IMG/VR virus record: IMGVR_UViG_3300028591_000082
From: a virus
Lineage: Duplodnaviria > Caudoviricetes
Length of the DNA stretch: 64,000 nucleotides
Reading direction: 5' to 3' (one strand)
Below the pieces are notes generated by a model that did not search any database, was not told where the DNA came from, and saw nothing but the letters and a program-made list of their open reading frames with translations. The position numbers and the translations under genes were made by a program. Positions 2,547-60,784 of the stretch are shown here, piece after piece (within the stretch, counting starts at the first letter, position 1; each line of letters opens with the position of its first letter).

Positions 2547-2915
2547 TTATATATCAATATGTCTGTTAATTTTTTTTGGGACTAAATAAGCATCCCACAT
2601 AAAACCAAGTCCTTGGTCTATTTCAACTATAACAGAATTTTTTCCTATTTTGTTTGGTAATTTTGTAATTTTCACTTCACAAGGTTCAACATTTGGGCTC
2701 CAAAAAAGAATTTTCCCATCTTTATCATAACAAGGTAATCTATTATCTTGGGTACTTTCTCTAAAAAGCGTTGGAAAATTTTCAAAATACCAATGTGCTG
2801 GATATATAAGATATACATCTCCAACTTTTACATTTGATCTTATTCCAAGATTTTTCCTTGTATATTTTATTCTATCATATGGTAAATTATATGGTACTTC
2901 GTATGTTAATGGCAT
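2547..2915 (-). CDS. hypothetical protein with C-terminal RHIDI tail
   Basis: 122 aa ORF ending in the family tail. Confidence 0.7.
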   Translation of the reverse strand: MPLTYEVPYNLPYDRIKYTRKNLGIRSNVKVGDVYLIYPAHWYFENFPTLFRESTQDNRLPCYDKDGKILFWSPNVEPCEVKITKLPNKIGKNSVIVEIDQGLGFMWDAYLVPKKINRHIDI

Positions 2916-3094
2916 TGTTATCTCTTTTTTGGTAAATATTCTTCTCTTCCAGTTGCAAGAAGTTTTCCGTACTGAATCATATTGAATTTTATTTTACGAA
3001 TGTTTTCGTATATGATCCTTTGTTGGCGGGCATTAAGCCCGCGTATTTGCTGATAAATTTCCATTTCAAGTTCTTCGGTTTTACTAGACATAAA

Positions 3095-4489
3095 TTATTC
3101 CTTTGCTAAGTTTGCTATGTTTGAAATAATCTCCTTTTTTGGAGTATTATTATCTATCTGCATTTTATATCCAGTTTCCAAAGCCTTTGCAAAATTCTTA
3201 TTTGGCTTTATTTCCAAAGCCATAAGATCAACACCAGTAACTATTGGTTTTGGCATTGGCTTACCTATAAGAGATGCAACCCAAGGCTCTTTTACAAACT
3301 CACAAAGATCTGGAAGTTCGTCAGGAACATCATGTATGCTACCTTTCGAATCTGCATTTGAAAGTTTAAGTAATCTATCAAACCATTTATGTGAAACAAG
3401 TTTCCAAACTTTGTATTTAGATTTTGTTTCTGAAATTCTATGAGCAAGCATATGGTTTTCAACAAGCCATCTTATCATTTCGCAATCTTCATTTTTCATT
3501 CCAAGATTTTTGCAGAAATCATATGCAATAGGAGCACCTATAACATCATGACCGTGTACACAAGGAACTCCATTCTTTAATCCATTTCTTCTTCCTGCTT
3601 CTGGCTTTCCAACATCATGAAGAATTGCTGCAAGAACATCAAGCCAATCGTGTTCTTGAGAAACCATATTTTCTAATACAAGCATTGTGTGGTTAAATAC
3701 ATTACCCTCTTTATGCCATTTAGCAGACTGTTCACAAGAGTACATATCATACATAAATTCACTAAGACCTATATGATATGAAATACCAAAAAGATCCATA
3801 AGTGAAATTATTTCACGATTGAGATTTTTACCACCAAATATTCCAACAAGTTCTTTAAGTTGTCGCTCTTTTGAAATTTCTCCAAAAAGATTTTCTGCTC
3901 CAACTTCACGAATCATAGAACTAAGGTATGTTGCTATTTTATCGTCACAAGGCTTAAAGCCTTTTTGTGATATAAAACGAACATATCTCCAAAGTCTAAG
4001 AGGATCTTCTTCTACTCTTTCCCAAGCATCTCCAACAAAACGAAGAAGATTTTTGTTAATATCTTTAACCCCAAGTTTTGTAGGATCTATTATTTCACCA
4101 TGCTTGTTTTCATAAAGAGCGTTTACAGTAAAATCACGACGCATTGCGTCTTCTTTTATATCTGTTGTAAATTCTATTTTTGGATGCCGTCCTTTTGTTA
4201 TATCACGACGCATTGTTGCAATTTCAAATTCTTCAGTTTTACCATTTATATCTATAAGTGGCATTGTAACACCGAATGGTTCTGAGTTATTTGATGTATT
4301 TGAAAATCTTTCGAATATTTTATGTAATTGAGCAGGTATAGCATCCGTACATATATCGTAATCGTGTGGCTCAACTTTCATAAGTTTGTCTCTTACGCAG
4401 CCACCAACAAAATAAGCATGGAAGCCATTTTTTTCTATTGGATTTATTACTTTTTCTATTATCTGATTTTTGTCCATATTTGCCTCCAT
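3095..4489 (-). CDS. cca: CCA-adding tRNA nucleotidyltransferase with HD domain
   Basis: VGGCVRD..DYD, EIATMR, DAMRRDFTVNAL, EDPLR motifs; H..HD..D HD domain (HTM..LHDVGK..NHM..D). Confidence 0.92.
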   Translation of the reverse strand: MEANMDKNQIIEKVINPIEKNGFHAYFVGGCVRDKLMKVEPHDYDICTDAIPAQLHKIFERFSNTSNNSEPFGVTMPLIDINGKTEEFEIATMRRDITKGRHPKIEFTTDIKEDAMRRDFTVNALYENKHGEIIDPTKLGVKDINKNLLRFVGDAWERVEEDPLRLWRYVRFISQKGFKPCDDKIATYLSSMIREVGAENLFGEISKERQLKELVGIFGGKNLNREIISLMDLFGISYHIGLSEFMYDMYSCEQSAKWHKEGNVFNHTMLVLENMVSQEHDWLDVLAAILHDVGKPEAGRRNGLKNGVPCVHGHDVIGAPIAYDFCKNLGMKNEDCEMIRWLVENHMLAHRISETKSKYKVWKLVSHKWFDRLLKLSNADSKGSIHDVPDELPDLCEFVKEPWVASLIGKPMPKPIVTGVDLMALEIKPNKNFAKALETGYKMQIDNNTPKKEIISNIANLAKE

Positions 4490-4550
4490 AATAATATTAT
4501 ATCACGAAAATATTATTGGAGCAGGGTGCAAAATTTTTGATTTGAGAATA

Positions 4551-4829: not shown

Positions 4830-4833
4830 AATC

Positions 4834-5364
4834 CTAATAATTAAAATATTTGTATTCGGTAATTACATTTACCTTCTCTTTCTGTAAACCTTCAAGAAAT
4901 ACAAGTACTGAATTTTTAGAATTCATATATCCATCATATACTTTTCTAAATCCATCATTAAGACCGTCAAGAATAACCTTACTTGTTTTATACATAACTC
5001 CTTTATCTAAAAGCAAAGTGCTTATAAGATTTTGAAGTTCTTTCTTTTGTTTAACAAAAGTATCAAATTGTATAATCCAATAATCGTCTTGTCTTGACTG
5101 CTGATGTCTTACTCTTATCCAACCTTTTGAAATAACATCTTTCATTATTTCATTTCTTGCCTGACCTTCGTTGCCTGGAGTTTCATTATATTTCTTGTAA
5201 ATTTCTTTTATTTTTTTTTCAGTATATCCGAAAATTTCAGGATTGTCAACCAAATCGTGAATATGTGTTTTCCCACCTTCTATTATTCCATTCACTTTTG
5301 ACTTATATTCTTTAAGACCTACTTCAATTAGTTTTTTGTTTTTGTACCAATATGCTTTTCCCAT
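4834..5364 (-). CDS. hypothetical protein
   Basis: 176 aa ORF with AAGGA RBS. Confidence 0.7.
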   Translation of the reverse strand: MGKAYWYKNKKLIEVGLKEYKSKVNGIIEGGKTHIHDLVDNPEIFGYTEKKIKEIYKKYNETPGNEGQARNEIMKDVISKGWIRVRHQQSRQDDYWIIQFDTFVKQKKELQNLISTLLLDKGVMYKTSKVILDGLNDGFRKVYDGYMNSKNSVLVFLEGLQKEKVNVITEYKYFNY

Positions 5365-5394
5365 AATTGTATCCTTAAAATTATCTTAAAGATT

Positions 5395-5469
5395 TGGGGG
5401 TGACAGGATTTGAACCTGCAAGTCTTCTGCTTCGTAGGCAGATGCATTATCCAATTTTGCTACACCCTC
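5395..5469 (-). tRNA. tRNA-Arg(ACG)
   Basis: cloverleaf; anticodon arm TCTGC-CTACGAA-GCAGA. Confidence 0.9.
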
Positions 5470-5546: not shown

Positions 5547-5888
5547 TTATATATTTATAAGTCTTCTATAATCTTTAGAAAAACTTATCATTTCATTACT
5601 CCAAGAAAAACCATGTATTATTCCTTTTTGTCTAGGGTTAAGTCCTTCGTCAGAAAAATAAATCTGATATCCGTATTTTATCCAATTTTTATCATAACTA
5701 TATGATTCACTTTTTTCTACTTTTTCTATTTTTAATTTTTTATCGCACATTTCTTCCATTACTTCGTTAACTCCAAACATGGCAGAATGAGTTTCAAAAA
5801 AATTTTTTGATCTTATGTAAACATATTTACCAATAATATCATTTTCGTTTATTACTAGTAATTCATGATCGTCATATTTAACAAACAT
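5547..5888 (-). CDS. hypothetical protein with RLINI tail (start revised to MFVKY)
   Basis: upstream extension in the ORF track overlaps tRNA-Gln. Confidence 0.7.
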   Translation of the reverse strand: MFVKYDDHELLVINENDIIGKYVYIRSKNFFETHSAMFGVNEVMEEMCDKKLKIEKVEKSESYSYDKNWIKYGYQIYFSDEGLNPRQKGIIHGFSWSNEMISFSKDYRRLINI

Positions 5889-5890
5889 AT

Positions 5891-5979
5891 TTCTAGGGGC
5901 GGGATTCGAACCTGCACTAGCCAAAAGAGGCTAACCAGCTCCAAAGGCTGGGGTGGTACCAATTACACTTTACCCTAGA
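5891..5979 (-). tRNA. tRNA-Gln(TTG) with long variable arm
   Basis: CCAGC-CTTTGGA-GCTGG; U1-A72; extra stem TAGCC-TCTTTT-GGCTA. Confidence 0.8.
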
Positions 5980-9828: not shown

Positions 9829-10299
9829 TTAATAATCGAAAACTTTTTTCTGCTTAGAGTACTCTAAGTTCGACTTAGAAGTATCTCCTTGCATTGTTGT
9901 ATTTATGATAGCACCTAACTCTTCCAATGGAAGTTTCTCTTCGTTTTCAGAATTCCATTTTTTGCATAAAGCGTAGTACTGTTTTAACATAGGAAGTATC
10001 TTCTTGTTGTATACAAGATAAATTGCTTTCTGTGTTTTATCGTCGTTCCAATTTGTATTGTTCGCAGAACCAGTTTTCTTTGCAAGAGAAACGACGCTTC
10101 TAAAAATTTCCTTTACTGTAGCTTGATCACTTTTAAAAAGCTGTTCCTTCATTTCTGCAAGGTCTTTATCAAGCTTCTTTAATGCATAAGTAAGTGTATC
10201 ATATATTTGACTTTCTTCAAGTATTTTAAGAGCCTCATTTTCGATCATAATTTCTTCGAATAAATCGGCTACCTCATTTATCAAATCATTAAGTTTCAT
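9829..10299 (-). CDS. hypothetical helical protein (start revised to MKLNDL)
   Basis: ORF track. Confidence 0.65.
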   Translation of the reverse strand: MKLNDLINEVADLFEEIMIENEALKILEESQIYDTLTYALKKLDKDLAEMKEQLFKSDQATVKEIFRSVVSLAKKTGSANNTNWNDDKTQKAIYLVYNKKILPMLKQYYALCKKWNSENEEKLPLEELGAIINTTMQGDTSKSNLEYSKQKKVFDY

Positions 10300-10319
10300 A
10301 AAATTAACTTTTTTAAATA

Positions 10320-11215
10320 AAGGCGAATATTTCGTCATTCGCATATGTTAGCGACTGCCCAAGTCCATCTTAACAAAACGCATTGGCTTCACTTTTCTCC
10401 ACTCTAGGCACCACAAGTAAGAGCCCCCAATGTTGTTTAGCATGTCTACCTTTGACAGTAGCAAGCACGACAATCCGTGCTCCACACTATGTTGGCTTTC
10501 AAGGAACTATCATAGGAATTATCTAGAATACCACACTTTCATTCCTTGCGTTAATTAACAATTCAACCAACAGAATTTGTTTTCCATTTCCGAATTACTT
10601 GGGAAACAACCTCTTTATCCGAAGACGAGAGGTTAGTATACAGGGTATTAAGGAGTCGAACCTTAACACGCCAAAACGCCTCAAGCAAGCTTGAAACACC
10701 TCGGCAACCACTTACCCTTACCATTTGCAAACAAGCTATACAATAATGTATTTAACCATTGCTGGCTTACAGAGGCTTACTGTAAATTAAGCTTGTCGAA
10801 TACCTTTTGTGCCAACCGAGTTGGCTACTGTGGTTGTTGATCTAATCTCACACAGCTTTTAATACCAAGAGTTTTCTGTCAGTTCAATAAAAGAACCTAT
10901 TGAAGTGGTATATTGGTAAACTCTTAACCGTTATTTGGCTTTCACGCTCTCTGTTTCAAGTACCACAGACATTGAGCTTTTGGAATGAGGAACTTCCTCA
11001 TGTTGCCACATAAACTTCAAACTTGCTTGCTATCCGATTTCCACGGACTACTAAACGCAATAGTTATGATCATAGGTATTCACGCCACCTTAGAATTTCC
11101 GACGGGTGTTTAGAACTTTTCCTTGTTCAATGGCGTAAATTTTATTTCTTTACGCAAGAATATATAAAGTTAGCCATTGGCACCGTTCACCAACATGATT
11201 AAGCTGCCTAGCATC
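10320..11215 (-). ncRNA. candidate large (~900 nt) structured ncRNA (copy B) with embedded tRNA-like domain at 10641-10718
   Basis: no ORF; many long-range helices (GCAAGCAAGTT/AGCTTGTTTGC, GAATACCT/AGGTATTC, CTGTGGT/ACCACAG, AAGAGTTT/AAACTCTT). Confidence 0.55.
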
Positions 11216-12639: not shown

Positions 12640-12888
12640 TTATATATAAGTTCCTCTTTTAAAAGGAAGTTTAACATCTATATGTTCAGCAATAAGAGCA
12701 GCTTCTCCTAAATGCCCAACTACTCTTATTTCGGAAAACCTTTTTGCTTTATCTTTAAGGCATTTTGGAACTTCCACAGTAAAAGTTCCTTTTTTCTCGC
12801 CATCAATATCATAGCAAAGTGATATTTTATCGCCTTCTACATTAACAACTTTTCCTTCCAAAATAAAAGAATTAAGATTTCTTCTCAT
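12640..12888 (-). CDS. short SSB-like OB-fold protein
   Basis: NLNSFILEG...IRVVGHL...IAEHID resembles short SSB paralogs (recalled from spirochaetes, not searched). Confidence 0.5.
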   Translation of the reverse strand: MRRNLNSFILEGKVVNVEGDKISLCYDIDGEKKGTFTVEVPKCLKDKAKRFSEIRVVGHLGEAALIAEHIDVKLPFKRGTYI

Positions 12889-13457: not shown

Positions 13458-13475
13458 ATAAAATCATTTCTTTTA

Positions 13476-13547
13476 TATCCCAACTAGGATTCGAACCTAG
13501 ATCTCCACTCTTAACGAGCAGAATGCTAACCGTTACACCATTGGAAC
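13476..13547 (-). tRNA. atypical tRNA, nominal anticodon TTA
   Basis: full cloverleaf; loop CGTTAAG (G33, possible C32-G38 pair). Confidence 0.55.
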
Positions 13548-13806
13548 AACCTAAACTAGTAAGAGGGTTAACGCGTATTTCTCTTAGTCGGCTTGAGCAG
13601 GGAAAAGAAAATATGCTCGTGCCTACTAGTTTGGTAGTTAATTAGTCACGCAGACGGCATTTGCCGACACTTCTGGTTTGCCAACTACCTATGCTCACGG
13701 ACTCTAACCGTTTCTTAGTGCATTGAAGTTACAAGTAAGTTTTCCTTACTCTTATATTATACACCGTAAATCTGAATTTAACAGGGTGCATAATTTTTTG
13801 GTTTCG

Positions 13807-16062: not shown

Positions 16063-16216
16063 AGTTTTCTCCTATGTTAGAAATTATTCTTTTTTGTTTT
16101 TTCCAAAGAAAAAAGCAATGTTTAAACTTATTAAAATAGCAGCACCTACTACAAAAAGAAACAAAGTCATATTTTCCTCCTTATTTTTTTGTTGTGATAC
16201 TTTTTTAATAATATAT

Positions 16217-16573: not shown

Positions 16574-16678
16574 ATAAGAAGGGCTCATTTTAATCACCAC
16601 AGTGTCATTGCCCTTCGCCCATATATTTATACTGCGTTGTGGCTCTTTGCAGTTTATAAGTAGACTTGCTACTCATAG

Positions 16679-16752
16679 TCCTCCCAGATGGAATTGCACC
16701 ACCGACCAACGGCTTATAAGGCCGCTGCTACTAACTGCTGAGCTATGGGAGG
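16679..16752 (-). tRNA. tRNA-Ile(TAT)
   Basis: GCGGC-CTTATAA-GCCGT; T loop TGCAATT. Confidence 0.8.
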
Positions 16753-18681: not shown

Positions 18682-19051
18682 TGGAGGTGCCGAGATTCGA
18701 ACTCGGGTCTTCACCAATTACTATATTAAACACTTCTATACAGGCTTAAAGTCATATTATTGCTTGGAATGACTAATACCATAAAATCTTTAACCTTATC
18801 ATTTAGCCAAAGGATTTGCAGACTTTGATCGCTAAACTATTCCGTTCGTTTACACGCCTTCTAACATCTATAACAGAAAGGAACTGTAAGAAGACGGCTA
18901 GGCTCACGCAGTCCTAGCAAGTTTGAGGTGCTTACGCAGCCATCAAAACTTCTTCGTAGTCGTTGTCGATTACTTTTTTGCCATTTCAAACCATGACTGG
19001 TTATGTACCTGATGTTCAATTTTTCATTGTGAATCGATACCGTTCACCCCC
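18682..19051 (-). ncRNA. ssrA: tmRNA; tag (A)GKKVIDNDYEEVLMAA
   Basis: 5' GGGGGTGAACGGTATCGA; 3' GAAGACCCGAGTTCGAATCTCGGCACCTCCA (G3-U70); internal tag frame ending LMAA-TAA. Confidence 0.93.
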
Positions 19052-23896: not shown

Positions 23897-24589
23897 CTAG
23901 TAATCGAAGAACTTCTTATCTTCGAGAATAATCTCGCCCGAAGTTTCCCTAGCCCTTCTTTCAGCAAATGAAGATGCTGGAGGGTTGAAGTAAATTTCTT
24001 CTTCAAGAGCAGAAAATCTTTTTAGTTTTCCTGCATCTACTTTTTTAGGATTATTAAAATCTGTATAATACTTTTCTGTAGCTTCTTTTGCTGCTCTTGC
24101 GATCTTTAAATTTTCCTTAAAAGTAGTAACAGTCTTCCCATTTCTATCTGCCCAAATTGGTTTTTCACCAGGCTTCTTAAAATAGAAAGAGTACTGATTA
24201 TATTTTTTTGTAAGTGCCTTACCAAACTCAAAAATTTTGTTTATATCTAAGGCTTTTCCGTCTTTCCCAGAATTATAAACAATCATTGATGTTTCGCCTG
24301 GTACAGAAACTTTCTTGCCATCTATTTCTTCAAGAGAACCACCATAAACAGGAGTAAATGTATAACCAGCCTTATGAATATCAGACTGAAGTTCTCTTGT
24401 TTTTTGCTTATTTATTGTCTTGTTATTTTCGGGATTTTTTTCGTCCCAATCTTCACGACAAGCAGATATAATTATGTATCCATTTTTTTCGTGAACATTC
24501 AAAAGACGATCAATTTTGTCTTCATTTAATGTATAGGAAACAGGACTTTTTGTTGCTTCATTGAGATTAACATAATTTTCATTATTCAT
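23897..24589 (-). CDS. hypothetical phage protein
   Basis: 230 aa; AAGGA RBS; sigma70 promoter at ~24633-24661. Confidence 0.75.
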   Translation of the reverse strand: MNNENYVNLNEATKSPVSYTLNEDKIDRLLNVHEKNGYIIISACREDWDEKNPENNKTINKQKTRELQSDIHKAGYTFTPVYGGSLEEIDGKKVSVPGETSMIVYNSGKDGKALDINKIFEFGKALTKKYNQYSFYFKKPGEKPIWADRNGKTVTTFKENLKIARAAKEATEKYYTDFNNPKKVDAGKLKRFSALEEEIYFNPPASSFAERRARETSGEIILEDKKFFDY

Positions 24590-29185: not shown

Positions 29186-29509
29186 CTATATCTTAACAAA
29201 CCTTGTAGTTTTATTATAAAGAATTTCTTTTAATGCATAAAACATTATCTCTCTCATTTCTTCACAATTACTAAGCTTTGCATTACGATAACCAAGTTCT
29301 TTTAAAAAATGATTGCATCCTGTTGATTCTATCCCAAACTTATCATTAAGTGGGCATAAATCACAATCATGTGGAAATAAGTTATTGCGTAAATTATTAT
29401 AATAAGTTTTTATTAAAGACTTACCAATATCATTTGTATGAATAAAATCTTTAACACCGACAACTAAATGTCCAAAGTATATTTTATCTACGCGTTTTGG
29501 AAGCTTCAT
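29186..29509 (-). CDS. CxxC family protein, tail RFVKI
   Basis: CDLCP..C..C. Confidence 0.75.
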   Translation of the reverse strand: MKLPKRVDKIYFGHLVVGVKDFIHTNDIGKSLIKTYYNNLRNNLFPHDCDLCPLNDKFGIESTGCNHFLKELGYRNAKLSNCEEMREIMFYALKEILYNKTTRFVKI

Positions 29510-30746: not shown

Positions 30747-30813
30747 TTTATTATCCCCCAATATACATATATATTATACAACTAAAAAATTATTTTAGCA
30801 GGGTGCAAACTTT

Positions 30814-31140
30814 TTAAATCTTAACAATTCTTGCTTTATTGAGAATATGTTCTAGTATTTGAGTTATTACTTCTCTTTCCTCTCTACAGGTTAATCCATA
30901 AGCTTCATTGTATCCAAGATCTTCCAAAAAAGAATTACAGCCAACATAATATGTTGTACTAAATGCATCATTTAATGGACAATGACGACAGACAAGTACT
31001 GTTTTTGATGTATCTTTTAAAGATACTAAATTTTTATAAAAATAAATTATTTTTTCTCTTGAGATTTTTTTATATTTAATAAACTTAGCAGCACCTATAG
31101 TTGCCTGTTCTACTCTACTTTTAAGTATTCTACTTGGCAT
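30814..31140 (-). CDS. CxxC family protein, tail RIVKI
   Basis: CRHCP..C..C; paralog of 29186. Confidence 0.75.
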   Translation of the reverse strand: MPSRILKSRVEQATIGAAKFIKYKKISREKIIYFYKNLVSLKDTSKTVLVCRHCPLNDAFSTTYYVGCNSFLEDLGYNEAYGLTCREEREVITQILEHILNKARIVKI

Positions 31141-34080: not shown

Positions 34081-34410
34081 TTAAATCTTAATATTATTTC
34101 TTGAAGATTGTTCAAGCTCTTTTAATATTTTAAAAGAACTTTTTCTTATATCGTCGCAATTATTCATTGGAAAATAACAATCTGCATAACAATTAACAAG
34201 TTTTATAATTAAAGTACATACAGGAATATCACATCTTCCTGCAAAGATTTCTCCTCTACCTGTTAACATAGTTTTTAATACACAATCAGAGCAAGGAATA
34301 TAATCATGTTCTAATTTTAATTCTCTACTTCTAGGAACTCTACTTATATATTTATTATATGATAAATATGATAATTGTCTTTTTGCTTCTTTCTTTTGTT
34401 CTGAATTCAT
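34081..34410 (-). CDS. CxxC family protein, tail RNNIKI
   Basis: CSDC..C..C. Confidence 0.75.
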   Translation of the reverse strand: MNSEQKKEAKRQLSYLSYNKYISRVPRSRELKLEHDYIPCSDCVLKTMLTGRGEIFAGRCDIPVCTLIIKLVNCYADCYFPMNNCDDIRKSSFKILKELEQSSRNNIKI

Positions 34411-36488: not shown

Positions 36489-36839
36489 CTATATCTCCAA
36501 TTTTTCTCTAGTGTCTTTGACACCATTTATTCTTTTAACCTGAATCCAAATCCAACGGCAATCGTCGTCAGAAACCGTAATGTGTGCATTATTTAATAAT
36601 TCTTCAAATGTAAATTTACCGTTATACATACACCACATTACATTATATTCACCATTTTGATGGGCAGCATCTGCAGCCTCTTCGCTTTCAACAAATTTTG
36701 CGTCAAAATCTGAGCAAATTTCTTCTACAGCTTTTCTTATTTTTGGAAATGATCTTTTATTAAAATAAAAAGGACTACAATAATCATAATCACCATTGTA
36801 ATCTTTTGCTTCAATTATTACGATTTTTTCGTCTTTCAT
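36489..36839 (-). CDS. hypothetical protein
   Basis: ORF track. Confidence 0.7.
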   Translation of the reverse strand: MKDEKIVIIEAKDYNGDYDYCSPFYFNKRSFPKIRKAVEEICSDFDAKFVESEEAADAAHQNGEYNVMWCMYNGKFTFEELLNNAHITVSDDDCRWIWIQVKRINGVKDTREKLEI

Positions 36840-38356: not shown

Positions 38357-39326
38357 TTATATTTTTATATTACGATCTGTTATTTTTATTTTTACAGGAA
38401 ATTTTTCAAAAAAAAGATCACATAACAAAGAATCATCTTCAACAAATTCTTCTATAAAATCTCGAAGAGTTCCACTCCAACCAATAAGTTTACATAAAGC
38501 ATAAGCTCTTTGAGCACAACAAGATATTGTACTTCTACTTGCATAACTAAAAAATTTTTCAAATTTTTTATTTTCGTGAAGAATAGCACGATTATCTGGT
38601 TCAAAAGGGCAATGATATCCATAGCAATTGTCAGTAAAACCTTCCCCTTCGCCAATTTCTATTTTATTTTTGATATATTTTAAGTTTTCTGATAATTGTT
38701 TTTCTAATTTCATATTTTCGTATTTACCCTTGTTTTAACTTCTATATCATAAAACCATCTTGAAAACCTATCGCACCAAACTCCAGAACCTGGTTCGTGA
38801 ATTTCCTTTGGCAAATTTTCAATTTTAAAATAATCTAATATTTTTTCACAGTTAACTCCACAATCAAAAGCATTACTTATACCAATTTCTTTTCTGTAAA
38901 GACTCATTGATGTTTTTATTGGACAGTAATCACATTGTCCAAATCTTTTAGGATTTATTGTTTCTTTTATTTTATAAAAAATTTTTAATTTATTATATGG
39001 CATTCTTATTTTCATATTTTTATATTATACCTTGATACAATTTTTAAATCACAAAACCATCTTGAGAATTCTTCACATGAAACACCATTGCCACTACCAT
39101 ATTTATGAATATGTTCAGGCAAAAGCCATCTAATGTTAAAATAATCTAATAATCTATCACAATTAAATCCACATCTTCTATTGTCAGATGTATTTGTCTC
39201 ATTTGGAAATTCTTCTTTTGCTATCGCTATAGGGCAACTGCAGCAATCACCAAAATAATCTGGATCACAAAAATTTACTATTTTATTAAATATTTTTACT
39301 TTTTTTGAAGTAAGTTTTATTTTCAT
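38357..39326 (-). CDS. three coupled CxxC family genes (38357-38713, 38710-39015, 39012-39326)
   Basis: CxxCP motifs; tails RNIKI, RVNTKI, RYNIKI; ATGA overlaps. Confidence 0.8.
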
Positions 39327-39327
39327 T

Positions 39328-39549
39328 TTATTTCCCAAAAATCAAAGAAAGAACAAAAACCAATCCATATACAGATGTTTCAAGAACAAGAGCGTTGAAT
39401 GTCTTTTTGCATATATTCTTTCTTTCAAATGTATGTTCTGTATCGTGTTTTACTTTTGATTTTGATTGTACAAAGTTGTAAATAAGAGAAGCTGATTTTC
39501 CCATAAAAAGTACAAATGAAATATCTTTTATCATAATTTTTGCCTCCAC
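39328..39549 (-). CDS. small membrane protein
   Basis: two hydrophobic segments; box promoter at 39581. Confidence 0.55.
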   Translation of the reverse strand: MEAKIMIKDISFVLFMGKSASLIYNFVQSKSKVKHDTEHTFERKNICKKTFNALVLETSVYGLVFVLSLIFGK

Positions 39550-39594: not shown

Positions 39595-42374
39595 TTATAT
39601 TTTAATTTCTCTATTTGTTGTGATCATTGTTAAAATTTTTTTTGCTGAATCTAAGTTTCTACCACAAGTATCATTGTTTAAATAAAAATTGGTACGTAAT
39701 GATATAACATAATTAGTTAATGTTTGACAATTAGTATAATAATTTCCAGTTTTCTCTGTTCTTAATGGACATTGATCGCATGTACGACCACAAACATTAA
39801 TATACATATCTATAAATTCTATCATTTTTTTTGGACTAATCTTATATCTTTTTGAATAAAAATTTCTTATTCTAAGTGCTTCAATATTTTTGAATCTTTT
39901 CATATTTTTATATTCCTACTCTTAAGTCCAATGTTATATACCCAATTTTGAAAATTATCACAATCAACGCTGCCACGAATATATTTACACTGATATAGAT
40001 CCAAGTCAAAATAATGCATTATATCTATTGCTATATCAGAACAAGAATCAAAAATATCTACTTCTAATCTTATATTATTTATAAGATTATTTTCTGTGGC
40101 AATACCATATCTTCCTCTTAGTATACATACTGGGCATCCTTTGCAACTTTCATTTATTGTTTCTTTTTGCTCTTGTGGAGTTTTTATTCGAAACATATAT
40201 TTTTTTAACTCTTTAAATTCTTTAATATGTTTCATATATTTATACTCCTACTTTTATTTAAAATATATTTTATTGCTTTTATATGGCTTCTACATCCATC
40301 TCTTCCTTCGTTAATTTTTCTCCAAATATCAAAACCACCTACTGTTTCTATATATCTTCCACAAGTAAGATGTAAACGATTATTTCTATCTGCACAAGCA
40401 CACATAATACATCCAGGATAACCTTTATTTCTAGAATGTTTGACGTACTCAACGGCTTTTTTAAAAGCAATTTTATCAATATTTTTCATATTTTTATATG
40501 CCTACCAAAATTGTTTACTATTTTGCAAATTATTGCTCTTCCTTCAGCACAACTTGTAAATTTTTTATCACCACCCATTGCTTTGTATATATCTGCACAA
40601 GAACCATGCATAGCATATTTCTCTCTTGGGAAGTCTGTTTTAAGTCTTTGCCATACACATTCTGCACAAGCAGTAACCTTTTCGTTTACTGTAACATTTT
40701 TATCGTATTTTATTATCCATTTGATATCTTTTAACAATTCTTTGTTTAAAGGCATTTGCTAATCCTTCTTAATTATTTTTTTATCATATTTTTATATCAC
40801 GTTTTGAATTATTGTCTAAAGCAAATTTTATTGCTACTATATGCTCGTCGCAACTAAGTTCATCTTCTTCAAAGCCAAGTCTTTCCCAAATATCTTCTCC
40901 TAAAACTTTTTCTATGCGTTCATAACAATATAAATTATCAGAATTATTTTGATGAGAGCTTGGGCAATTTTCACATTCGTCACAATCACTACTTTCATAA
41001 TCCAAAAATGTTATATAATGTAAAGTATCTTTAAATATTATTTCAGTTTGCTTATTTAGTTTTATTTTTTTCATATTTTGGCTGGTTTCCTATAATTTTC
41101 CAAAGTATATTTTATTGCTTTTAATCTATCACTACAGTTGTGCTCGTCTTCTCCTATTCCTATTTTTCTAAGAGATTCTCCAATTACTTCTTCAATAAAA
41201 ACACAACAGCCAAGATGAAGTGGATTATACTCAAAACTACAAGGACATTCAGTACAATTCCTTTCACCATATTTATGATATTCTAATGTTTTCTTAAAAA
41301 GTTCTATATAAGTTGAATTTAGTCTCATATTTTTGCTGGCTTCCTATGATTATAATCTTTTAAAGCTTTTTTAACTGATTCTAATCTTCTTTTGCATGAA
41401 TAAAAACCGAAACGATCTATATATTGTGGAATCACTCTAGTAAGAAAATCCATGCATCCTTCCCCACTTGGATTATTTGAATAACTAAGTGAACATATAC
41501 TACAGTCATGGCCTTGGTTTTCTTTTAATGCATTTTTTAAAGTTCTTATTTCTTCTTTGCTTAGTTTCATATTTTAGTTGCTCTTATTTTACTTTTTGTT
41601 TTATATATTATATCAGAAAAGCGTCTGACATCATCACAATTAAATAAATTAAACATTCGTTTTCCAGGAACAAATTTTGCAAACACTTCATTAAAATAAT
41701 CAATACAACCAATACCAATATCATTATTAGAAGAACTCATTGGGCATTCTTCACAAGCTGTAAAATCATTTATATATTTCATTTCAGAAAGTATTTTCAT
41801 TAATTTTCTGCTTGGTCTCATACTTTAATGTTCCTATATGATTTTTTTAATAATATATCTGTATAATTCCTAATTGTTAGACAATAACTTTCGTATTTTT
41901 TACTATTGTTAATAATCCATTGTTCAGAATTACTGCAAATTTCATGTAGATAAGTAAGACAAGAAATATTAAATCCACTATTAGTGGCATACAAAGGACA
42001 ATTGTCACAACCAATGTGCGTTCTTTTACAATCAAGAGAAAATCCTTTTGACAATATATTTTTTCTTAATGCATTTAATTTACTAATATCAATCATATTT
42101 TAATAATCCTAAAATTGGTAGGTAGCTGCTCCAAAAACCAACAATAAAACCTACTGCAATTAACGGAATTATCTATAATTGCTCTTGGCGGGTAATCCAT
42201 TTTTAATATGTCAAGCATTCTGTAAACTTCCATAGCACAACTTCCATTGCATATTTTTTTCCCAGTAATTTTTTTATAGATTTCCTTTGGACAAATATGA
42301 CATTCGTTGGCAATATCATTAGAGCGTGATATCATTGTTTCTTTTATTTTAAGAGCCAAGGTTGAATTTTTCAT
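39595..42374 (-). CDS. array of ten CxxC family genes (left ends 39595, 39900, 40232, 40486, 40784, 41071, 41325, 41567, 41818, 42093)
   Basis: 81-111 aa each; CxxC..C..C; R..[K/N][I/V] tails; mostly ATGA-coupled. Confidence 0.85.
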
Positions 42375-42670
42375 GCTGGTATTTCCATTTCCTGATATTC
42401 CTTTCCAGCTTTCCAAGATTGATAGGTAGATACTTTCATTACACCTGAAGTATTATCAGTTAAAAAGCCTTCGCTGTTGTATTCACGATTATTGTCTTTG
42501 TGATATTCTTCATTAATACCGTCAAAGCCATCAAAGAAAGCGGCATTGATGTATGTCATATCTATTTCATCAAAGTTTTGAAACTCTTCGGAGTGTTCAC
42601 CATTATAATAATAGTCGTACCAGGCATCTCCCTTGTTATTATAAGCCTTCTTCATATCAGGAAACAACAT
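42371..42670 (-). CDS. acidic hypothetical protein
   Basis: GGAGGT RBS. Confidence 0.7.
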   Translation of the reverse strand: MLFPDMKKAYNNKGDAWYDYYYNGEHSEEFQNFDEIDMTYINAAFFDGFDGINEEYHKDNNREYNSEGFLTDNTSGVMKVSTYQSWKAGKEYQEMEIPA

Positions 42671-42674: not shown

Positions 42675-42935
42675 CTACACCTCCTCTACTTCTAAGCAGT
42701 CTTCTTCAGCAAGCTTGTTAAATTCTTCTTCTGAGATTTCTTCAAGAATATAAGAGATGTGAAGTTCTTCTTCGTCTTCTTGTTCGTCGTCCCAATCAGC
42801 TTCTTCCATAGAGCGATCGTCTGCATGTTCGCAGCAGAAGTCGTCTACTGCGTTATAGTCCTTGTCAGACTTAATGAGATATTCGTTAGTATATCCACAG
42901 TAATTTGCATCTTCTTCTACTTTATAAAACTTCAT
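42675..42935 (-). CDS. small highly acidic protein (duplicate of 2199-2456)
   Basis: GGAGG RBS; box promoter at 42990. Confidence 0.8.
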   Translation of the reverse strand: MKFYKVEEDANYCGYTNEYLIKSDKDYNAVDDFCCEHADDRSMEEADWDDEQEDEEELHISYILEEISEEEFNKLAEEDCLEVEEV

Positions 42936-43021
42936 AATTTGCCTCCAGTTATTCCTCATATATATTATACAACAAAAAAAGCACCTTAGCAGGGTGCAAA
43001 AGTTTTAGGAATAATCAATAA

Positions 43022-44919
43022 CTATATCTTCACAGATTTTCTTTTTGACTTAAAATCCTCACATATTTGATAACAAGCATCTCTTACGTCACAGCAGCTA
43101 AACAAATGACCCGATGGTAAATATCCCTCAATTATTTCCTTACCAATCATATCTCGCAGGACAGTTAAGCAAGTTCTAAAATAAATTCTATCATTGAGTG
43201 GACACGTTTCACAATGCAAATCAGGAACTGTAGTTGTCATTTTTAACATTTTAATTATATCGGGTCTTATTTTTTTCATATTTTTGTATTTCTTGAGAAT
43301 TTGTAATTTTTAACAAAATCATATACTTTTTGGTGTATAGTTGGGCAATGAGTGGTCATATCAATACCAAATATTCTCTGTATTTCACTGCATGGCTTTT
43401 CCCCACCAAGACAACTAATCATTGTATCTTTTTTCTTTCCAATACTTTCAAAGTATTTATGCAGTATACAAGTTTCTCGCATCAAAACCCCATAACCAGT
43501 TCTTCCAATATCTTCATTACAATTCTTTTGTATGCATTTGAATTTAGCTATCACATCATCTTTTTTCATATTTTACATCCAAGCCTGTATTTAGAATGAT
43601 TAACCATATATTTAATTGCAATTACCTGATCTCTACAACCAGTACAGTCTCCCCCAGATTCTTCATATATTTTATCTCCTCCAATCTTCATTATAAATAA
43701 ATAGCATCCAACTTTTGCTCTATTATTTTTTTTAGACATAGGACATTTTTCACATATATGCCCTTCACTTTGATGCTCTTCTACATATTTTAAAGCACTT
43801 TTAAGCGTCATTAAATCTTTTTTACCAATCTTTTTCATATCTTAATACCTCTAGTAGAGTTAGAATATTTAATCATATATTCAATTGCCATATGCTGAGA
43901 ATTATACCCCTTCATTGCCGCTTCATCGCGTATATTCTTTCCTCCCAAGAACTTTATAAATTCTGGGCAAGTCAATCCCACTCTATTATTAGTACTGCTC
44001 ATAGGACAAGTTCTACAATCAGCAAACCCCTTTCCCTCCCAAAGTCTTTTAGCAGTTTTCATAGTAGCCAGATCACTTTTACTAATCCTTTTCATATTTT
44101 AATACCCCTTAAATGGCAAATTCTATATATTTCTTTATGTATATCAGCACACATAATATATCTATTAAGTCCAAACTCTTCTACTATTTTACCACATATT
44201 TTCCCACCAAGACATTGACTTCCGTGATATTCTTGTTGTAAAGCTTGTTCTAAGAATTTATGCAATATACAAGATTTTCGTATAATAAACCCATTATCAT
44301 CTATTTTAATATTAGGAGAGCATTTTATGCTTTTAAGTTTATTAAACATCTGCCTATAGTTAAGTATTTGTTGATACCCATTCATATCTTAGTCTCCCTA
44401 ATACCTCTTTTTATAATATTATATACATTCTTATGTATATCAGCACACATATTAGTTGCTTTTAATCCAAGCATTTTCTGTATGCCTTCACATATATATC
44501 CTCCAACACAATTAGCTCCATAAAACCTTAATGGTGGGTTTACACATAATAAGTACTTATGCAGTATACAGTTATGCCGCCAGTTAACGCCACAAGTATT
44601 AAGATTAGGATTACACTCTTTTCTTACTTTACAAAGTAAGCGTATCATTTCATTATTAGCCATATTTCCTTTATATCCTACAAAATCTATTAATTTTTAT
44701 ATTCATAAATGCATCATAAAACTCTATACAACCACATCCACCACTATACTTTATACCAAGCCTTTTACATAACTGTTCCCGGTGTTCTGCACACCCAATG
44801 CCCTTAAGTCTTCTTATAGATAAATTACTATAAATGGTAATAGGACAGCACCTACAAGCACCAGGAGCATTGTTCTTAGCTAATTCTGCTTGTATTTTCC
44901 TTATCATTCTCTTATCCAT
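43022..44919 (-). CDS. array of seven Cys-rich family genes (left ends 43022, 43276, 43566, 43835, 44092, 44382, 44671)
   Basis: CxxCP or CILH variants; tails KSVKI, RNTKI, LGCKI, RGIKI, RGIKI, RETKI, RFCRI. Confidence 0.85.
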
Positions 44920-45376: not shown

Positions 45377-45730
45377 ATGCCTAGAATAAGTGATAGATAT
45401 AGAGTAATAGAAAGCGATTGGACTCCATATGTAACTGTAACACATAATGATACTACAGCTGATGCAACTACAGCTACTAGTACTGGTACATATTGGACAT
45501 TTAATGATGATGTTAATGATAATCGTGTAACAGTTAATTTACATGATTATTGGTATGAGGTACCTAATTCAAATGGATACATTACTTTGGATCCAAGTCT
45601 AAGCTTTAATAGTAATTCATTATGGTCTGATAATAGATCATATGTTAGTTGGGATCCAGGATTAAGTTTTGAAGAAGCTTACAAAAGATGGTTGAAAAGA
45701 CGGAATAAGAAGAGAGTTATAAGGATATAG
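45377..45730 (+). CDS. hypothetical protein, tail RVIRI (possibly leaderless)
   Basis: ATG 6 nt after the -10 box. Confidence 0.7.
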   Translation: MPRISDRYRVIESDWTPYVTVTHNDTTADATTATSTGTYWTFNDDVNDNRVTVNLHDYWYEVPNSNGYITLDPSLSFNSNSLWSDNRSYVSWDPGLSFEEAYKRWLKRRNKKRVIRI

Positions 45731-45732: not shown

Positions 45733-45912
45733 ATGGAAGAAGAACTTTTAGAATCGGTTAGACGATTACTAGATAGTGTTTATAGGGATAATATCAGCCG
45801 CAGAATATTTAGAGAATACTCTATGGAAGTGTCGGGAGATACTATTTATTATGTTAGACCATTCTTTGGAAAGAATATAAAACACAAGTGCAGGAAGAAT
45901 TGCAAGATATAA
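45733..45912 (+). CDS. 59 aa protein, tail RKNCKI (not in the ORF track)
   Basis: translated by hand, MEEELLESVRR...HKCRKNCKI; AAGGA RBS. Confidence 0.65.
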   Translation: MEEELLESVRRLLDSVYRDNISRRIFREYSMEVSGDTIYYVRPFFGKNIKHKCRKNCKI

Positions 45913-46048: not shown

Positions 46049-46432
46049 TTAAGCAGCAGGCTGAATGCTTACAACCTTACCGAAGTTGATGTAGCGTACA
46101 CCAGTTGTTCCGTTAGGAGTGTTGTCTTCGGTGTAGTTTACAGTGATTGTAGCCTCGCCAATCTTTACGATTGGGAACTGATACTCTTTAGCAAACTTGC
46201 CAGAGCCGCAGATTACAGTAGCGATGTCGCCAACCTTTGCGTCCTTAACAAGAGCCTTACCAGCTTCAATTGCTTCAGCCTTAGCGGCTTCGCGAGCTGC
46301 CTTTGCCTGTTCAGCAAAAGCTTCCTTACCAGCCTTCTTCATTTCCTTGAGGGCGTCGATAGCAGCGTTGATTGAATCGAGGTTGTCAGCCTGAATACCG
46401 ATAGTAGCGAATGTTTCTGGAGTGAATTCCAT
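46049..46432 (-). CDS. coiled-coil plus KOW/SH3-like protein, paralog 2
   Basis: VGDIATVICGSGKFAKEY...RYINFGKVV. Confidence 0.85.
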   Translation of the reverse strand: MEFTPETFATIGIQADNLDSINAAIDALKEMKKAGKEAFAEQAKAAREAAKAEAIEAGKALVKDAKVGDIATVICGSGKFAKEYQFPIVKIGEATITVNYTEDNTPNGTTGVRYINFGKVVSIQPAA

Positions 46433-47841: not shown

Positions 47842-48258
47842 TTACTGTGCGTCTACTCCGACAACCTTACCGAAGTTGATGTAGCGAACACCTACTGTGC
47901 CATTCGGTGTGTTATCTTCGGTGTAGCGAACAGTAATTGTTGCTTCGCCGATTTTTTCGATAGGGAACTTGTATTCCTTTGCGAACTTTCCACTACCACA
48001 GATAACTGTAGCAATGTCGCCGACTTTTGCGTTTTTGAGCAAAACCTTTCCGTTTTCAACGGCTTCGGCATTTTTTGCTTCGCGGGCAGCCTTCTGCTGT
48101 TCTGCGAACATTTCCTTTCCCGATTTCTTCAACTGACGGAGAACTTCCATAGTTGCGTCGAGTTCGTCAAGATTTATGAAATCCTTTGAGATTCCGATTG
48201 TTGCGAGTTTTTCTGTCTGAGCAGCCAAAAGTGATGGAGAAAAAGTTTTGTTAGCCAT
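47842..48258 (-). CDS. coiled-coil plus KOW/SH3-like protein, paralog 3
   Basis: same motif. Confidence 0.85.
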   Translation of the reverse strand: MANKTFSPSLLAAQTEKLATIGISKDFINLDELDATMEVLRQLKKSGKEMFAEQQKAAREAKNAEAVENGKVLLKNAKVGDIATVICGSGKFAKEYKFPIEKIGEATITVRYTEDNTPNGTVGVRYINFGKVVGVDAQ

Positions 48259-52483: not shown

Positions 52484-52906
52484 TTATTCTGCCTTTTCTA
52501 CGCCAACAACCTTTGAGAAGTTGATGTAGCGAACACCTGTTGTTCCGTTAGGGGTATTACCCTCTGTGTATTCTACGGTAACAGTTGCTTCACCGATTTT
52601 TACGATAGGGAACTTGTATTCCTTAGCAAACTTGCCCGAACCACAGATAACGGTTACGATGTCGCCAACATTTGCTCCCTTAAGCAGAGCCTTACCATTT
52701 TCGATATTTTCGGCTTTCTGAGCCTCTCTCTGAGCCTTAGCCTGTTCTGCGAGAGATTCCTTAGCAGAAGTCTTGATTTTGCGGATTTCGTCGATAGCAC
52801 AGTCGAGCAAATCCTTATCAACACATTCAGCGTTGATACCCATAGCATTAAGACCATTTGCAACTTTTGCAACCAATTCAGAAGAAAAAACTTTCTTAGC
52901 GTTCAT
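52484..52906 (-). CDS. coiled-coil plus KOW/SH3-like protein, paralog 4
   Basis: same motif. Confidence 0.85.
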   Translation of the reverse strand: MNAKKVFSSELVAKVANGLNAMGINAECVDKDLLDCAIDEIRKIKTSAKESLAEQAKAQREAQKAENIENGKALLKGANVGDIVTVICGSGKFAKEYKFPIVKIGEATVTVEYTEGNTPNGTTGVRYINFSKVVGVEKAE

Positions 52907-56637: not shown

Positions 56638-56963
56638 GTTCCTGGCAGGGTATGTATATATACAGTACCCTGTGGGATAGGTGCCCCCGCATCTTCCAAC
56701 GCCGAAAGGCTTAAAAAGTTTATGCAGGGGGTGGGTAAAAAACTCCTGGCAGGGTTTACTATACATATATATAGTACTATGGTATGCCCCCACGCACTCT
56801 CCAATTGTATAAGGCTAAATGCCTACACAAAGAGCTAGTAAAAAGTTCCTGGCAGGGTTTCCACTATATAATGGTATGTGTATATAGTGCCCTCCGCTAT
56901 TCCTCCCCTCAAACTGCCATAAAAGGCTATAAAAAGGTATAGTGTTTTACTCCTGGCAGGGTT
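56638..56963. repeat. degenerate tandem repeat, period 103-104 bp, core TCCTGGCAGGGT
   Basis: CCTGGCAGGG at 56641, 56745, 56848, 56952. Confidence 0.8.
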
Positions 56964-59883
56964 TATATATGTATATTCCTTTTAAAGAAGTGGCTTTCTA
57001 CCCAATCAGAAGTAGGATACTCGCATCTTTTACAACTATAATCACAAAGGTCTTCATAGCGTTCCTTATTGTATAAATTAGGGAGCTTAAGCTTTGTTCC
57101 TATCACCTTCCATATTGCAGTACATGAATACCTGGTTCCTAAGGTCTTGGCAAGTAAGTGAAATCTAATTCTACCGTCTTGGTTTAATAGCCAGAAGTAT
57201 TGGTGTGCTACACAGCCCTTACAGTGCTCGTCTTCTACTTTACTAAAAATTGGTTCATCATATTTAGCTATTTCTTTATTGTTGGCTTTTTTAATTGCCT
57301 GTTTTAAGATACTAATATTTAATATTTTATCTATCATTATTACTCCTGGCAGGGTTTATATATGTATGGTACGGTTACAGTGCTGTAGTTTTGCCAGTAT
57401 ATAATCTGAGCGTTGTGGAGGTGCACATAATATTGTGTTATAATTTGTTCCATACTGATAATTTAAACATTCTCTAATATCAATACAACTTATAAGGTAA
57501 GTGGTAAGTTCTTTACTTACTATATCTAATAGTTTACTTATATAACATCCATCGCAGTAGCAACTTGCTTCTTTTCCTTTTACCTGCTCTATGGATTTAA
57601 GTATTTGTTTTTTTGTTATATTAATATTTGATCTATCCACTATAGATGGCATAATTACTCCTGGCAGGGTTATATATGTATAGTTTTTCTTACAGAAACT
57701 AAAGATTCTACTCTTTTTGGATTTGGATAAAGGCAAAAGTTTCTTGGCTCTTCATCGTATTCATCTTCATCTTCAAGATCTTCAAATGTACTTCTGTCAT
57801 ATATATGAGTACCATATTTAATATCAATCAATTTCCATACTGCAGTACATGCGAATTTAGTTCCAAGTTCAGCAGCATTCGACCATAAATCACTTCTGCC
57901 ATTTCTATCTAAAAGCCAGAAATAATAATAAGCAGTACATCCTTTGCAATGTTCTTGTTCTCTTTGCATTGAAAGTCTGGCTTCTTTGTTACCTTCTCTT
58001 TTTCTGGCACTTTCAATTGCTTTCTTTAATTTATGTAAATCAATTTTATGCATTTGCCTTTCCTATATATCAATACATCTGAAACATTTAGTAGCATTAA
58101 TAAAATCATTTGCTACTAATTGAGTCAACGAGCAGCTTGTTGGACAATATGGGAAGAAACGTTGAAATAATCCCTTACCGCCACAAGGACTTCCACATAA
58201 ATCAACACCAAGTGCAAGCATAAGATCTTGAACTACACAAGTTTCACAAGATCCAATATAAACTTTTCTTGTTTTGATTTGTCTTATTTCTTTTGCATAT
58301 TTTTTTATTTCACCATTAAAGTAATTTTTATCTATAGTTTTCGTATTAATTTTTGCTGTTGCTGGCATAATTACTCCTGGCAGGGTTTATATTATAGTAA
58401 CCCTTGAAACTTTAAGTAATATTTCTTTTGTTTGGATTGGCTTTGTTGGACAAAATGACATACCTTTAAAATAAGATGTTCCATATTGTTTATCAAGAAG
58501 CTTTTTTACTTCAGAACAACTTGGTCGATTAACTTCTTCAAATAATTCTTCACAACGTCTTAAATAATGTATAAAACAATTACCACATTCATTAAATCCT
58601 TCATCTTTTATTTTAGTAGCATTTTTTATAGATTCTAAAATATATTTTCTACTAATATTCATTGCTTCTCCTATAAAGGTAAAATTCTTTTATATTTTCT
58701 TTGTACATAATCTATAAAATTTGCTGATACCATTTGTGACATATCGCATAAATAAGGACAGTCTGGAAAATACTTTTGAAATCGTTCTTCGTTACCACAC
58801 CCACATTCAATTTTGATACCAAATGTTTTTAATAAGCAAACAACTATACAATCATCATCAGAACAATCAGTTTTGATACCAATACGAAAATTATCTATAT
58901 CAATTTTATTTATCTCTTTAATGATTTTTGGATTAAGGGAACCTTTAAATTTACCAAAATCAACCGCTTTTTTAAATCTTATTGATGGCATATTCAATTC
59001 CTTAAATGTTAATTAGTCTTGCGTTGTTTATAATGCGTAGTATATCTTTTGTTGATGAATGAATGTCTTCTTCTAAATAACCATTACATACAATAATGCC
59101 TTTATGATACTTTTCTTTTATCATATCTTTTATATAAAAACAAGAATTTTTATAACTTTTTTTTGGTATTATTTCATCATACCATTCTTGAATAGTTATA
59201 TCATGCATAAGGTAATTAATAAAACATTTTCTACATTTTGGCGGATATGCATTGCCTCCAAATGAAGCTTCCGCATATTTTATACATTTTAGTATATTAC
59301 TTTTATCTAAATTTAATCCCATAATTTATTCCTGGCAAGGTTTATATTTCAATACATCCTCTCCCAGATATCTCATTATATAAAGTCTTGTATGCTTTAT
59401 TACAATCAAAATAGTTATATAATCCTGGATTTTTTTTAAATATCGTAGGTTCTATTTTAAATTTATAAAGTTCATTTTCTATACCAGTAGAACATATACC
59501 ACCATTAAATCTACATAAATTACAAACTCTATTACCTTGTTTAATAAGTTTATTTATTTCAGAAAGTTCTCTTTTTGTAAAAATAGGTTTTAAGATTGGT
59601 TTAGTTTTCATATTTTTGTTACTCTTTTAAGACTTGCAATTATATATATTATATCGTTTCTTGCTTCATTACAAGTTTTTGCTTCGCCATTATAAGTTGT
59701 ATAATATCCAAGAACAGATCCGCATCCGCTAGTAAAAGTGTCTTGTCCAAATCCTAAAATTTTAAGTGCTTTGCATACAACACAATAACTACAATTAGTT
59801 GATGCTCTGATTCTTGGATTTTGTAATAATTTTTTTAATTTTATTTTTTGCATTGATGTTGGATCTGCCAATAACTTAATCAA
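56963..59883 (-). CDS. array of nine CxxC family genes (left ends 56963, 57356 [start 57652], 57670, 58063, 58387, 58671, 59002, 59342, 59608)
   Basis: CxxC..C..C; tails RNIHI, RTIHI, KTIHI, RCIDI, RVTII, RILPL, RLINI, GCIEI, RVTKI. Confidence 0.85.
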
Positions 59884-60434
59884 TCTTCTCCTCCAGCAGC
59901 TTTTAACAAGTCTGCTTTATCCTGTACATTATTACAAAATTTTGCCCAAAGAGTTTCTGTATCTATAGGAATAAATTCAAAATCTTTAAAGAACTTACTT
60001 TCAGAGTTTGATTTAATACTTTTATTTATTTTCTCTGCTTCTCTACATTGTTCTGAAGTTGGATTTTCCAAAGAAGAATAAAATTCATATTGTTCATTCT
60101 TGTATCTTTTTATATCATTATTTTCACCTGGAATATATAAAATTGCTCCAAACAAAAGAAGTATTGTACCAAAAACATCAAGTGCTACAGATAACATCAA
60201 TAATATTTTATACCAAACATAACAACAGTAACTATCCCAACATAAATGTTCTGTACAAAAATATTTTATTTCATTAAATTTTTTTGCAATAGCATATTCT
60301 TTATCTGTTTTGTAAAGATTTTTTAAATGAAAATTATAAACAAAAATTTCTTTTATTATCAAAAGAATTTGAGGAATAAACATTAAAAATATTATTAATA
60401 AAAATCTTCTATATGTTACCCAATTTATATACAT
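59880..60434 (-). CDS. two-TM membrane protein
   Basis: hydrophobic segments. Confidence 0.7.
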   Translation of the reverse strand: MYINWVTYRRFLLIIFLMFIPQILLIIKEIFVYNFHLKNLYKTDKEYAIAKKFNEIKYFCTEHLCWDSYCCYVWYKILLMLSVALDVFGTILLLFGAILYIPGENNDIKRYKNEQYEFYSSLENPTSEQCREAEKINKSIKSNSESKFFKDFEFIPIDTETLWAKFCNNVQDKADLLKAAGGED

Positions 60435-60784
60435 AAGCTTCTTTCTTGTATTTTTGCAAATTCAAAAGATGTCATAAATACTTTACAAACATCATCACCT
60501 TTGCTATCTAGTTCATTATATAATTTTACAAAATCTTTTGTGCCAAATAAGTCATCAAATATATAAGCATTTATATGACAGCTGCTTGTTGCAACTATTT
60601 TTTTATCACGAGCAAGGTTGTTATAAAAAGTTTTTTTATTTAAAAAAATTTCTTTGTATCTTGGAGGTAAATCTCTTTTTAGTAATCCATCACTAAATGG
60701 GCATTTACAAAAAAAAGATCCATCACCTCTAACTATATTTTTTATACAGATTAACATATCTGAATTTTTTCTTATTAGTACCAT
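60425..60784 (-). CDS. divergent Cys family protein, tail RSLCI
   Basis: CKCPF..SC..C; resembles 38357. Confidence 0.65.
   Translation of the reverse strand: MVLIRKNSDMLICIKNIVRGDGSFFCKCPFSDGLLKRDLPPRYKEIFLNKKTFYNNLARDKKIVATSSCHINAYIFDDLFGTKDFVKLYNELDSKGDDVCKVFMTSFEFAKIQERSLCI

Follow-up and report, generated by a model that had tools for sequence, protein, structure and literature searches.

Results

Genes ending in a common C-terminal tail

The window, i.e. the whole stretch of 64,000 nucleotides analysed here, is part of a large rumen phage genome with 39 tRNA calls and a tmRNA (18682-19051), and it also encodes an RNA ligase, a CCA-type enzyme and phosphoesterases. About a third of its genes, 37 in number, end in the consensus R-x(2-3)-[K/N/H/D/E/R]-I-stop, which we refer to as the tail. 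On the minus strand these are a small SH3/KOW-like protein ending in RHIDI (2547..2915), an SH3/KOW-like barrel protein ending in RLINI (5547..5888), three uncoupled members of a family with four conserved cysteines (four-Cys family) at 29186..29509 (TAG stop), 30814..31140 and 34081..34410 (both ATT-TAA), and a protein outside that family with a weak link to the SH3-like group (36489..36839). Tandem arrays of tailed four-Cys genes follow on the same strand, with three members (38357, 38710 and 39012; 38357..39338), ten mostly ATGA-coupled members (39595, 39900, 40232, 40486, 40784, 41071, 41325, 41567, 41818, which ends in V, and 42093; 39595..42416) and seven members (43022, 43276, 43566, 43835, 44092, 44382 and 44671; 43022..44919). 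Another minus-strand array comprises nine four-Cys genes (56963..59883), eight of them tailed (56963, 57356, 57670, 58063, 58387, 59002, 59342 and 59608) and one, 58671, with a decayed tail; between most of its neighbouring genes lies a short repeated spacer with an SD rather than an overlap. A divergent tailed four-Cys member lies at 60425..60784 (minus strand). The plus strand carries a Cys-free orphan ending in RVIRI (45377..45730), at whose place and strand a second phage also has a tailed gene (L142:9093), and a 59-aa orphan ending in RKNCKI (45733..45912). Two more tailed genes are found just past the right end of the window, one on an identical contig (L006:846) and one in a close strain (L012:928).

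A sequence-only reading of this DNA had proposed a common C-terminal tag on some 37 proteins, and all the ends that it quoted were found in place. The loose ending R-x(2-4)-[IV]-stop occurs in 39 of the 107 curated genes compared to 1.9 expected from internal positions of the proteins of these genes (binomial p 2e-40), the stricter ending R-x(1-3)-[KR]-I in 24 compared to 0.14, and in the non-coding frames of the window the tail ending is present in 12 of 575. For the count of 37 true tails 53206 was set aside as a likely chance match and 12640, an 82-aa ORF on the minus strand (12640..12888), as a loose and uncertain match to the end pattern. Counted back from the last residue, the Arg of the 37 tails is located at position -4 in 26 and at -5 in 12, position -2 is I, V or L in 26 and otherwise T, C or A, position -1 is Lys in 23, and the last residue is Ile in 36. 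The end of ORF 5547 was confirmed, but its start was moved to the ATG at 5888 because the longer frame overlaps tRNA-Gln (5891-5979). The statement that nearly all CxxC genes carry the tail applies to most of the four-Cys family, but not to 1045, 28112, 35998, 50711 and 51549, CxxC genes outside this family. The frame at 16167 (end RRKI) shares sequence with tRNA-Arg and is unlikely to be a real gene.

Several other features recur in the window. A second C-terminal tag, K-x-F-[ND]-Y or K-[VF]-F-D-Y, is found on the minus strand at 4834-5364, 9829-10344 and 23897-24589 and resembles the peptides with which proteins of T4-like phages bind the sliding clamp by their C-terminus. Thirteen of the 68 non-tail genes end in Ala (24904, 28112, 28390, 32241, 42371, 46049, 50179, 50711, 54346, 55054, 55358, 62390 and 63252), often in VA or AA like the phage tmRNA tag and many Treponemataceae Hsp20s; these endings are probably ssrA-like degrons. 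Three paralogs of another family, without tail, are conserved in the second phage (L142; window positions 46049-46432, 47842-48258 and 52484-52906), and a small gene is present in two copies with the same C-terminal end 40 kb apart (2199-2456 and 42675-42959). A promoter-like element, TGCACCCTG followed after about 19 bases by a -10 box, occurs in about 55 copies between 466 and 56567, and a related short element with SD links the genes of the 56963-59611 array. Two tRNA calls (13475-13548 and 16678-16752) are unusual: one has the ochre-suppressor-like anticodon TTA and the other, a tRNA-Ile, the anticodon TAT; TAA is an ordinary stop here.

Families and folds of the tail bearers

With the last 8 residues removed the bodies of 31 of the 37 proteins link in one similarity network at E<=0.01, and 59342 joins this four-Cys family by its Cys pattern. 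The number of tags proposed at the outset is real, but their independence is not, as 32 of the 37 genes are paralogs and the tail has accordingly been gained few times. The family consists of small, strongly diverged proteins with the layout helix, CxxC, C, C, helix, tail, and the four conserved cysteines suggest a single metal site. Its relatives are confined to the present phage clade, where nearly all retain the tail. The AF2 model of 43566 is helical with a pLDDT of 88.9, the last three residues being below 50. Searching this model against PDB, BFVD, Atlas and VIA-wide gave no clear match (best VIA Z 4.8), which does not by itself make the fold new, and a comparison of ten tagged proteins with Pfam and PHROG yielded nothing significant.

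The SH3-like group comprises 2547, 5547, probably 36489, and relatives in L155 and L156, including an ortholog of 2547 (L155:7709, 33% identical) that keeps the tail. The AF2 model of 5547 (pLDDT 76.5) has SH3-like barrels as best structural matches (Z about 5); residues 107-112 are below 50 and the tail lies outside the barrel, so that in both modelled folds the tail is an external element of low pLDDT. Alignment of the SH3-like and four-Cys profiles is limited to the 7 tail columns. Counted by unrelated protein types, the tail has at least three kinds of bearer (four-Cys, SH3-like and orphans), which is far below 37 independent cases. The tagged proteins are basic (median pI 9.1), have no evident signal peptide and share no motif at their N-termini. 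None of the bearers, be it four-Cys helical, SH3-like or orphan, has an attached alpha-crystallin domain, and hence they are not sHSPs themselves but only possible ligands.

Selection on the tail peptide

We considered whether the ending is no tag at all, but the product of one family's shared ancestry and of coupling constraints, with AGG serving as SD and ATA-TGA as stop-start overlap. The paralogy of 32 of the 37 tailed genes is in line with this, as is codon usage: AGG encodes the tail Arg in 21 of 35 coupled but only 8 of 41 uncoupled genes of both phages (p 4e-4), as an SD would lead one to expect, and ATA is kept for the tail Ile where coupling is absent, in 17 of 20 genes of the window (p 1e-4). 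However, the tail is present on unrelated folds and on both strands and is part of neither modelled fold. In the second phage, where about 38 tails are found among the 114 genes seen and conserved genes are 68-87% identical to the window phage in DNA, 12 of the 21 uncoupled tails have ATT or ATC as Ile codon, with no excess of ATA (p 0.26), and orthologs of 29-60% identity keep R, K/R and I of the tail via synonymous and conservative changes. Ancestry and coupling as the whole explanation are therefore most improbable.

Whether the tail needs an overlapping downstream start can be answered from the window itself, as 17 of the 37 tails are ATGA-coupled and 20 have no overlap. Coupling, which the sequence-only reading had raised as an alternative, thus accounts for codons, AGG being enriched in coupled genes, but not for the peptide, and to judge from codon usage it shapes the former and not the latter. 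The selection on the peptide favoured by that reading is borne out: the tail is kept in uncoupled genes, with all three stops, with varied codons (CGT, CGA and AGA among those for Arg, ATT and ATC among those for Ile) and on unrelated folds. At the level of sequence comparison these results show the tail to be real, portable and selected as a peptide. Two further roles could be ruled out, stop-codon read-through via the anticodon-TTA tRNA, since all three stops occur after the tail, and rare-codon stalling, since ATA (42%) and AGA (60%) are common codons here.

Related phages and database searches

Contigs from other samples differ from the window in the region of the arrays. Relative to 29469-30807 the RNA ligase stretch is missing, and relative to 30809-43278 gene 43276 is joined to the DNA after gene 30814; as contigs from other animals join different array members, the array rearranges between strains. 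Searches of IMG/VR, GTDB and INPHARED with protein patterns returned no close relatives. A DNA pattern for two coupled tails matched 23 viral and 108 genome stretches, but not one of the 103 loci obtained carried three or more tail-like ends, so that no second phage clade was found by this pattern. A non-syntenic 280-kb phage sharing one gene had no tails in 20 kb, tail arrays were not seen at viral loci with other Hsp20s, and L157-L159 were discarded as spurious relatives that rested on methyltransferase matches. The literature, as far as searched, has nothing on tags of this kind or on these phages. The sequencing run with the best match is a sheep gut metagenome, and the host is inferred to be a spirochaete, in part from a FlgM-like gene in a relative.

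Hsp20 proteins of phage and host

A 222.6-kb contig, which we assigned to the window phage by 100% identity over the 14.4 kb compared, encodes an Hsp20, P0162 (PF00011). Its gene lies some 7 kb outside the window on the left, at a distance of about 8 kb from the 271-aa gene 1045-1860, and six small genes follow it after 3 kb. In the second phage the Hsp20 has 144 aa and is 90% identical to P0162, and the gene is syntenic in two related phages, the second and a third. The phage Hsp20s are acidic (pI 5.2-5.4). On the side of the presumed host an Hsp20 was found in 53 of 61 Treponemataceae genomes, so that an alpha-crystallin partner for the tail is on hand in phage and host alike. The 29 Treponemataceae Hsp20 ends compared, in four of which the motif was assigned by eye, have the form [RK]-x-I-x-[IVL] followed by at least two residues, with R or K at -4 in 27; in the phage Hsp20s the motif is followed by one residue. 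The window phage's own Hsp20 anchor lacks a basic residue at -4, and the phage Hsp20 homolog P0169 has the anchor K-V-I-K-I.

The third phage also encodes a second, divergent alpha-crystallin-like protein (L156:19747-20172) with neither N-terminal arm nor terminal IXI. The assignment is supported by an hhalign E of 2e-4, but at a probability of 45%, and by Atlas neighbours with HSP20 (score 0.79-0.82), and we regard the protein as a lead, namely a candidate dedicated receptor of the tail. In two phages the SD of hsp20 lies within an inverted repeat (L155:19040-19089 and L156:9950-10000), which could be an RNA thermometer. Near hsp20 we also noted a FlgM-like gene of 37 aa (L156:10859-10972) and a GGDEF gene (L155:16921-17994), which suggest that the phage acts on host motility.

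The tail matches the [RK]-x-I-x-I anchoring motif of the Treponemataceae Hsp20s in register. Comparison of 77 tail-like ends from two phages, two probable chance matches included, showed that 44 match [RK]-x-[IVL]-x-[IV] exactly and that R or K is at -4 in 63, as in the host Hsp20s. Judged as an IXI motif in an unstructured C-terminal extension, 54 ends fit [IVL]-x-[IV] and 23 fail the strict form, the tail having a pLDDT below 50 in two models. Position -2 is always I, V, L, A, T, C or M, with A, T, C or M in the 23. Lys is found at -1 in 53 of the 77 tails and is absent from the host Hsp20 motifs. A complex prediction for two copies of the Hsp20 core (residues 30-133) and the last 35 residues of 40784, run without controls and with an uncertain partner fold, scored 0.02 and speaks neither for nor against docking.

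Discussion

IXI motifs of sHSPs bind the beta4/beta8 groove of a neighbouring alpha-crystallin domain (PMC4823740), cyanophage sHSPs carry an IXI/V motif, some in non-classical form (PMC3827213), and in Hsp27 binding of the peptide is abolished by Ala at either aliphatic position (PMC6212398). We propose that the tail is a portable tag of this IXI/V type, by which a whole library of small proteins docks on the alpha-crystallin domain of either phage or host, a reading to which we give somewhat less than an even chance. The docking or sorting signal of the sequence-only reading, one form of which was beta-strand addition to a shared partner, thereby gains a candidate partner, the phage or host Hsp20, while virion loading and a protease tag become rivals. 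As the bearers are not sHSPs, this would be a new use of a known motif and not membership. What the analysis newly contributes, as far as sequence can tell, is an Hsp20 in the same phage genome and the match of the tail to the anchoring motif of Treponemataceae Hsp20s.

Docking would proceed by insertion of the tail aliphatics at -2 and at the last position as a beta-strand into the beta4/beta8 groove, with the basic residues at -4 and -1 pairing with the acidic chaperone. The Hsp20 oligomer of the phage, and probably that of the host, would be both shared scaffold and holdase, gathering and stabilising a quickly evolving set of small proteins that probably bind metal, and tails present in large amounts could dislodge the anchors of the host chaperone itself. 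In the tandem arrays the tail codons double as SD (AGG) and stop-start overlap (ATA-TGA) and so ease duplication, which does not explain the peptide. Paralog expansion and the rearrangement from strain to strain agree with the earlier notion of interchangeable effectors forming a library; the effector role is putative.

Several findings speak against an IXI motif. Position -2 is A, T, C or M in about 30% of the tails and Asn in the two tails found in the third phage, and Lys at -1 has no counterpart in the host motifs. The lack of a basic residue at -4 in the anchor of the window phage's own Hsp20 and the small number of independent gains of the tail also count against it. Unlike the Hsp20 motifs, practically every tail stops at the Ile, and this strictly terminal position suggests that a free carboxylate is recognised; we know of no IXI groove that needs one. 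Moreover, HTVC008M has an Hsp20 but none of such tails, and since Hsp20 is common in large phages the co-occurrence of tail and Hsp20 is weak evidence. These points keep three other readers of the tail alive.

The first is a host or phage AAA+ protease that, acting on the tail as a C-terminal degron in the manner of MuA and ClpX, would shorten the life of early proteins. The tail is strictly terminal and unfolded, and the MuA degron RRKKAI is likewise basic and ends in Ile (PMC8138137), but it has Lys at -2 and Ala at -1 where the tail has a fixed aliphatic residue and Lys. That the phage appears to use other degrons, with many genes ending in x-Ala and the tmRNA tag in AA, can be turned either way, as it makes degrons plausible in this phage and at the same time provides other genes with a simpler Ala-Ala degron already. 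In 26 Treponemataceae genomes the ending is not in excess over a reversed-pattern control, and altogether we consider a degron unlikely.

Alternatively, the tail could be the C-terminal counterpart of the T4 capsid targeting sequence and send a variable set of small basic proteins into the head, to be delivered when the phage infects. T4-like phages do tag divergent small basic proteins terminally (PMC9026906), and the tagged proteins here are small, basic, polymorphic between phages and rearranged between strains. The T4 tag, however, is N-terminal and removed by a protease, while no conserved cleavage site precedes the tail, and the tailed genes lie among promoters of the host RNA polymerase type and tRNA-repair genes, although T4 internal proteins are also made early. 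We rate virion loading as quite unlikely; it can be combined with docking on Hsp20.

Finally, the tail might dock on another hub that reads a free C-terminus, such as a PDZ-like domain, a TPR clamp or a scaffold protein of the phage from outside the known families. Class I and II PDZ ligands have comparable C-terminal ends, to which the invariant terminal Ile and the I, V or T at -2 bear a resemblance, and about half of the genome's genes were seen, which leaves room for such a hub. Against it, no PDZ-like or TPR-type domain is present among the annotated genes, and the tail proteins have no evident signal peptide, whereas known bacterial PDZ proteases are mostly periplasmic. Such a hub is in our view very unlikely.

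Docking on an alpha-crystallin domain can be taken further. This phage clade may have made the sHSP anchor a genome-wide address label, by which small proteins, more than 50 in number and either unrelated or strongly diverged, attach to an alpha-crystallin scaffold made by the phage. This scaffold, possibly a dedicated second copy without anchor like L156:19747, would store or concentrate them or carry them into the virion as a modular library for counter-defence or host takeover. We put this forward as a speculative extension, possible but on the doubtful side.

sHSPs are thought to choose their clients by misfolding and not by an encoded label. If the tail docks on Hsp20, more than 50 natural partners of a phage chaperone are defined by a five-residue tag that is directly testable with peptides, which bears on the reason for Hsp20 in many large phages. 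Should a protease or the capsid be the reader instead, about one third of the window's genes still carry a portable C-terminal signal, and many of its bearers belong to a large four-cysteine family without a fold match in the searches made.

Comparison with known systems

The T4 capsid targeting sequence of IPI-III (PMC9026906) is, like the tail, short and terminal, and the small basic phage proteins that share it are divergent and differ from one relative to the next, but it is N-terminal, 10 residues long and cleaved by the prohead protease, whereas the tail is C-terminal and has no sequence likeness to it. ClpX C-motif-2 of MuA (PMC8138137) shares with the tail the basic residues followed by a terminal Ile and the unfolded state; in the tail Lys at -1 and an aliphatic residue at -2 take the place of Ala and Lys. 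BAG3, a human protein that is not an sHSP, binds the same beta4/beta8 groove of sHSPs via IPV motifs (PMC6212398) and thus provides a precedent for an IXI-type motif of a non-sHSP protein on alpha-crystallin domains, the docking being inferred in our case; the IPV motifs are internal and belong to one eukaryotic co-chaperone, whereas the phage tail is terminal and borne by a large diversified library. From the IXI/V anchor of sHSPs the tail differs in being placed at the very end of about 40 non-chaperone proteins of the window, in Lys at -1 and in the 30% of non-canonical residues at -2, while it shares with that anchor the [RK]-x-I-x-I register, the unfolded C-terminal place and an Hsp20 in the same genome.
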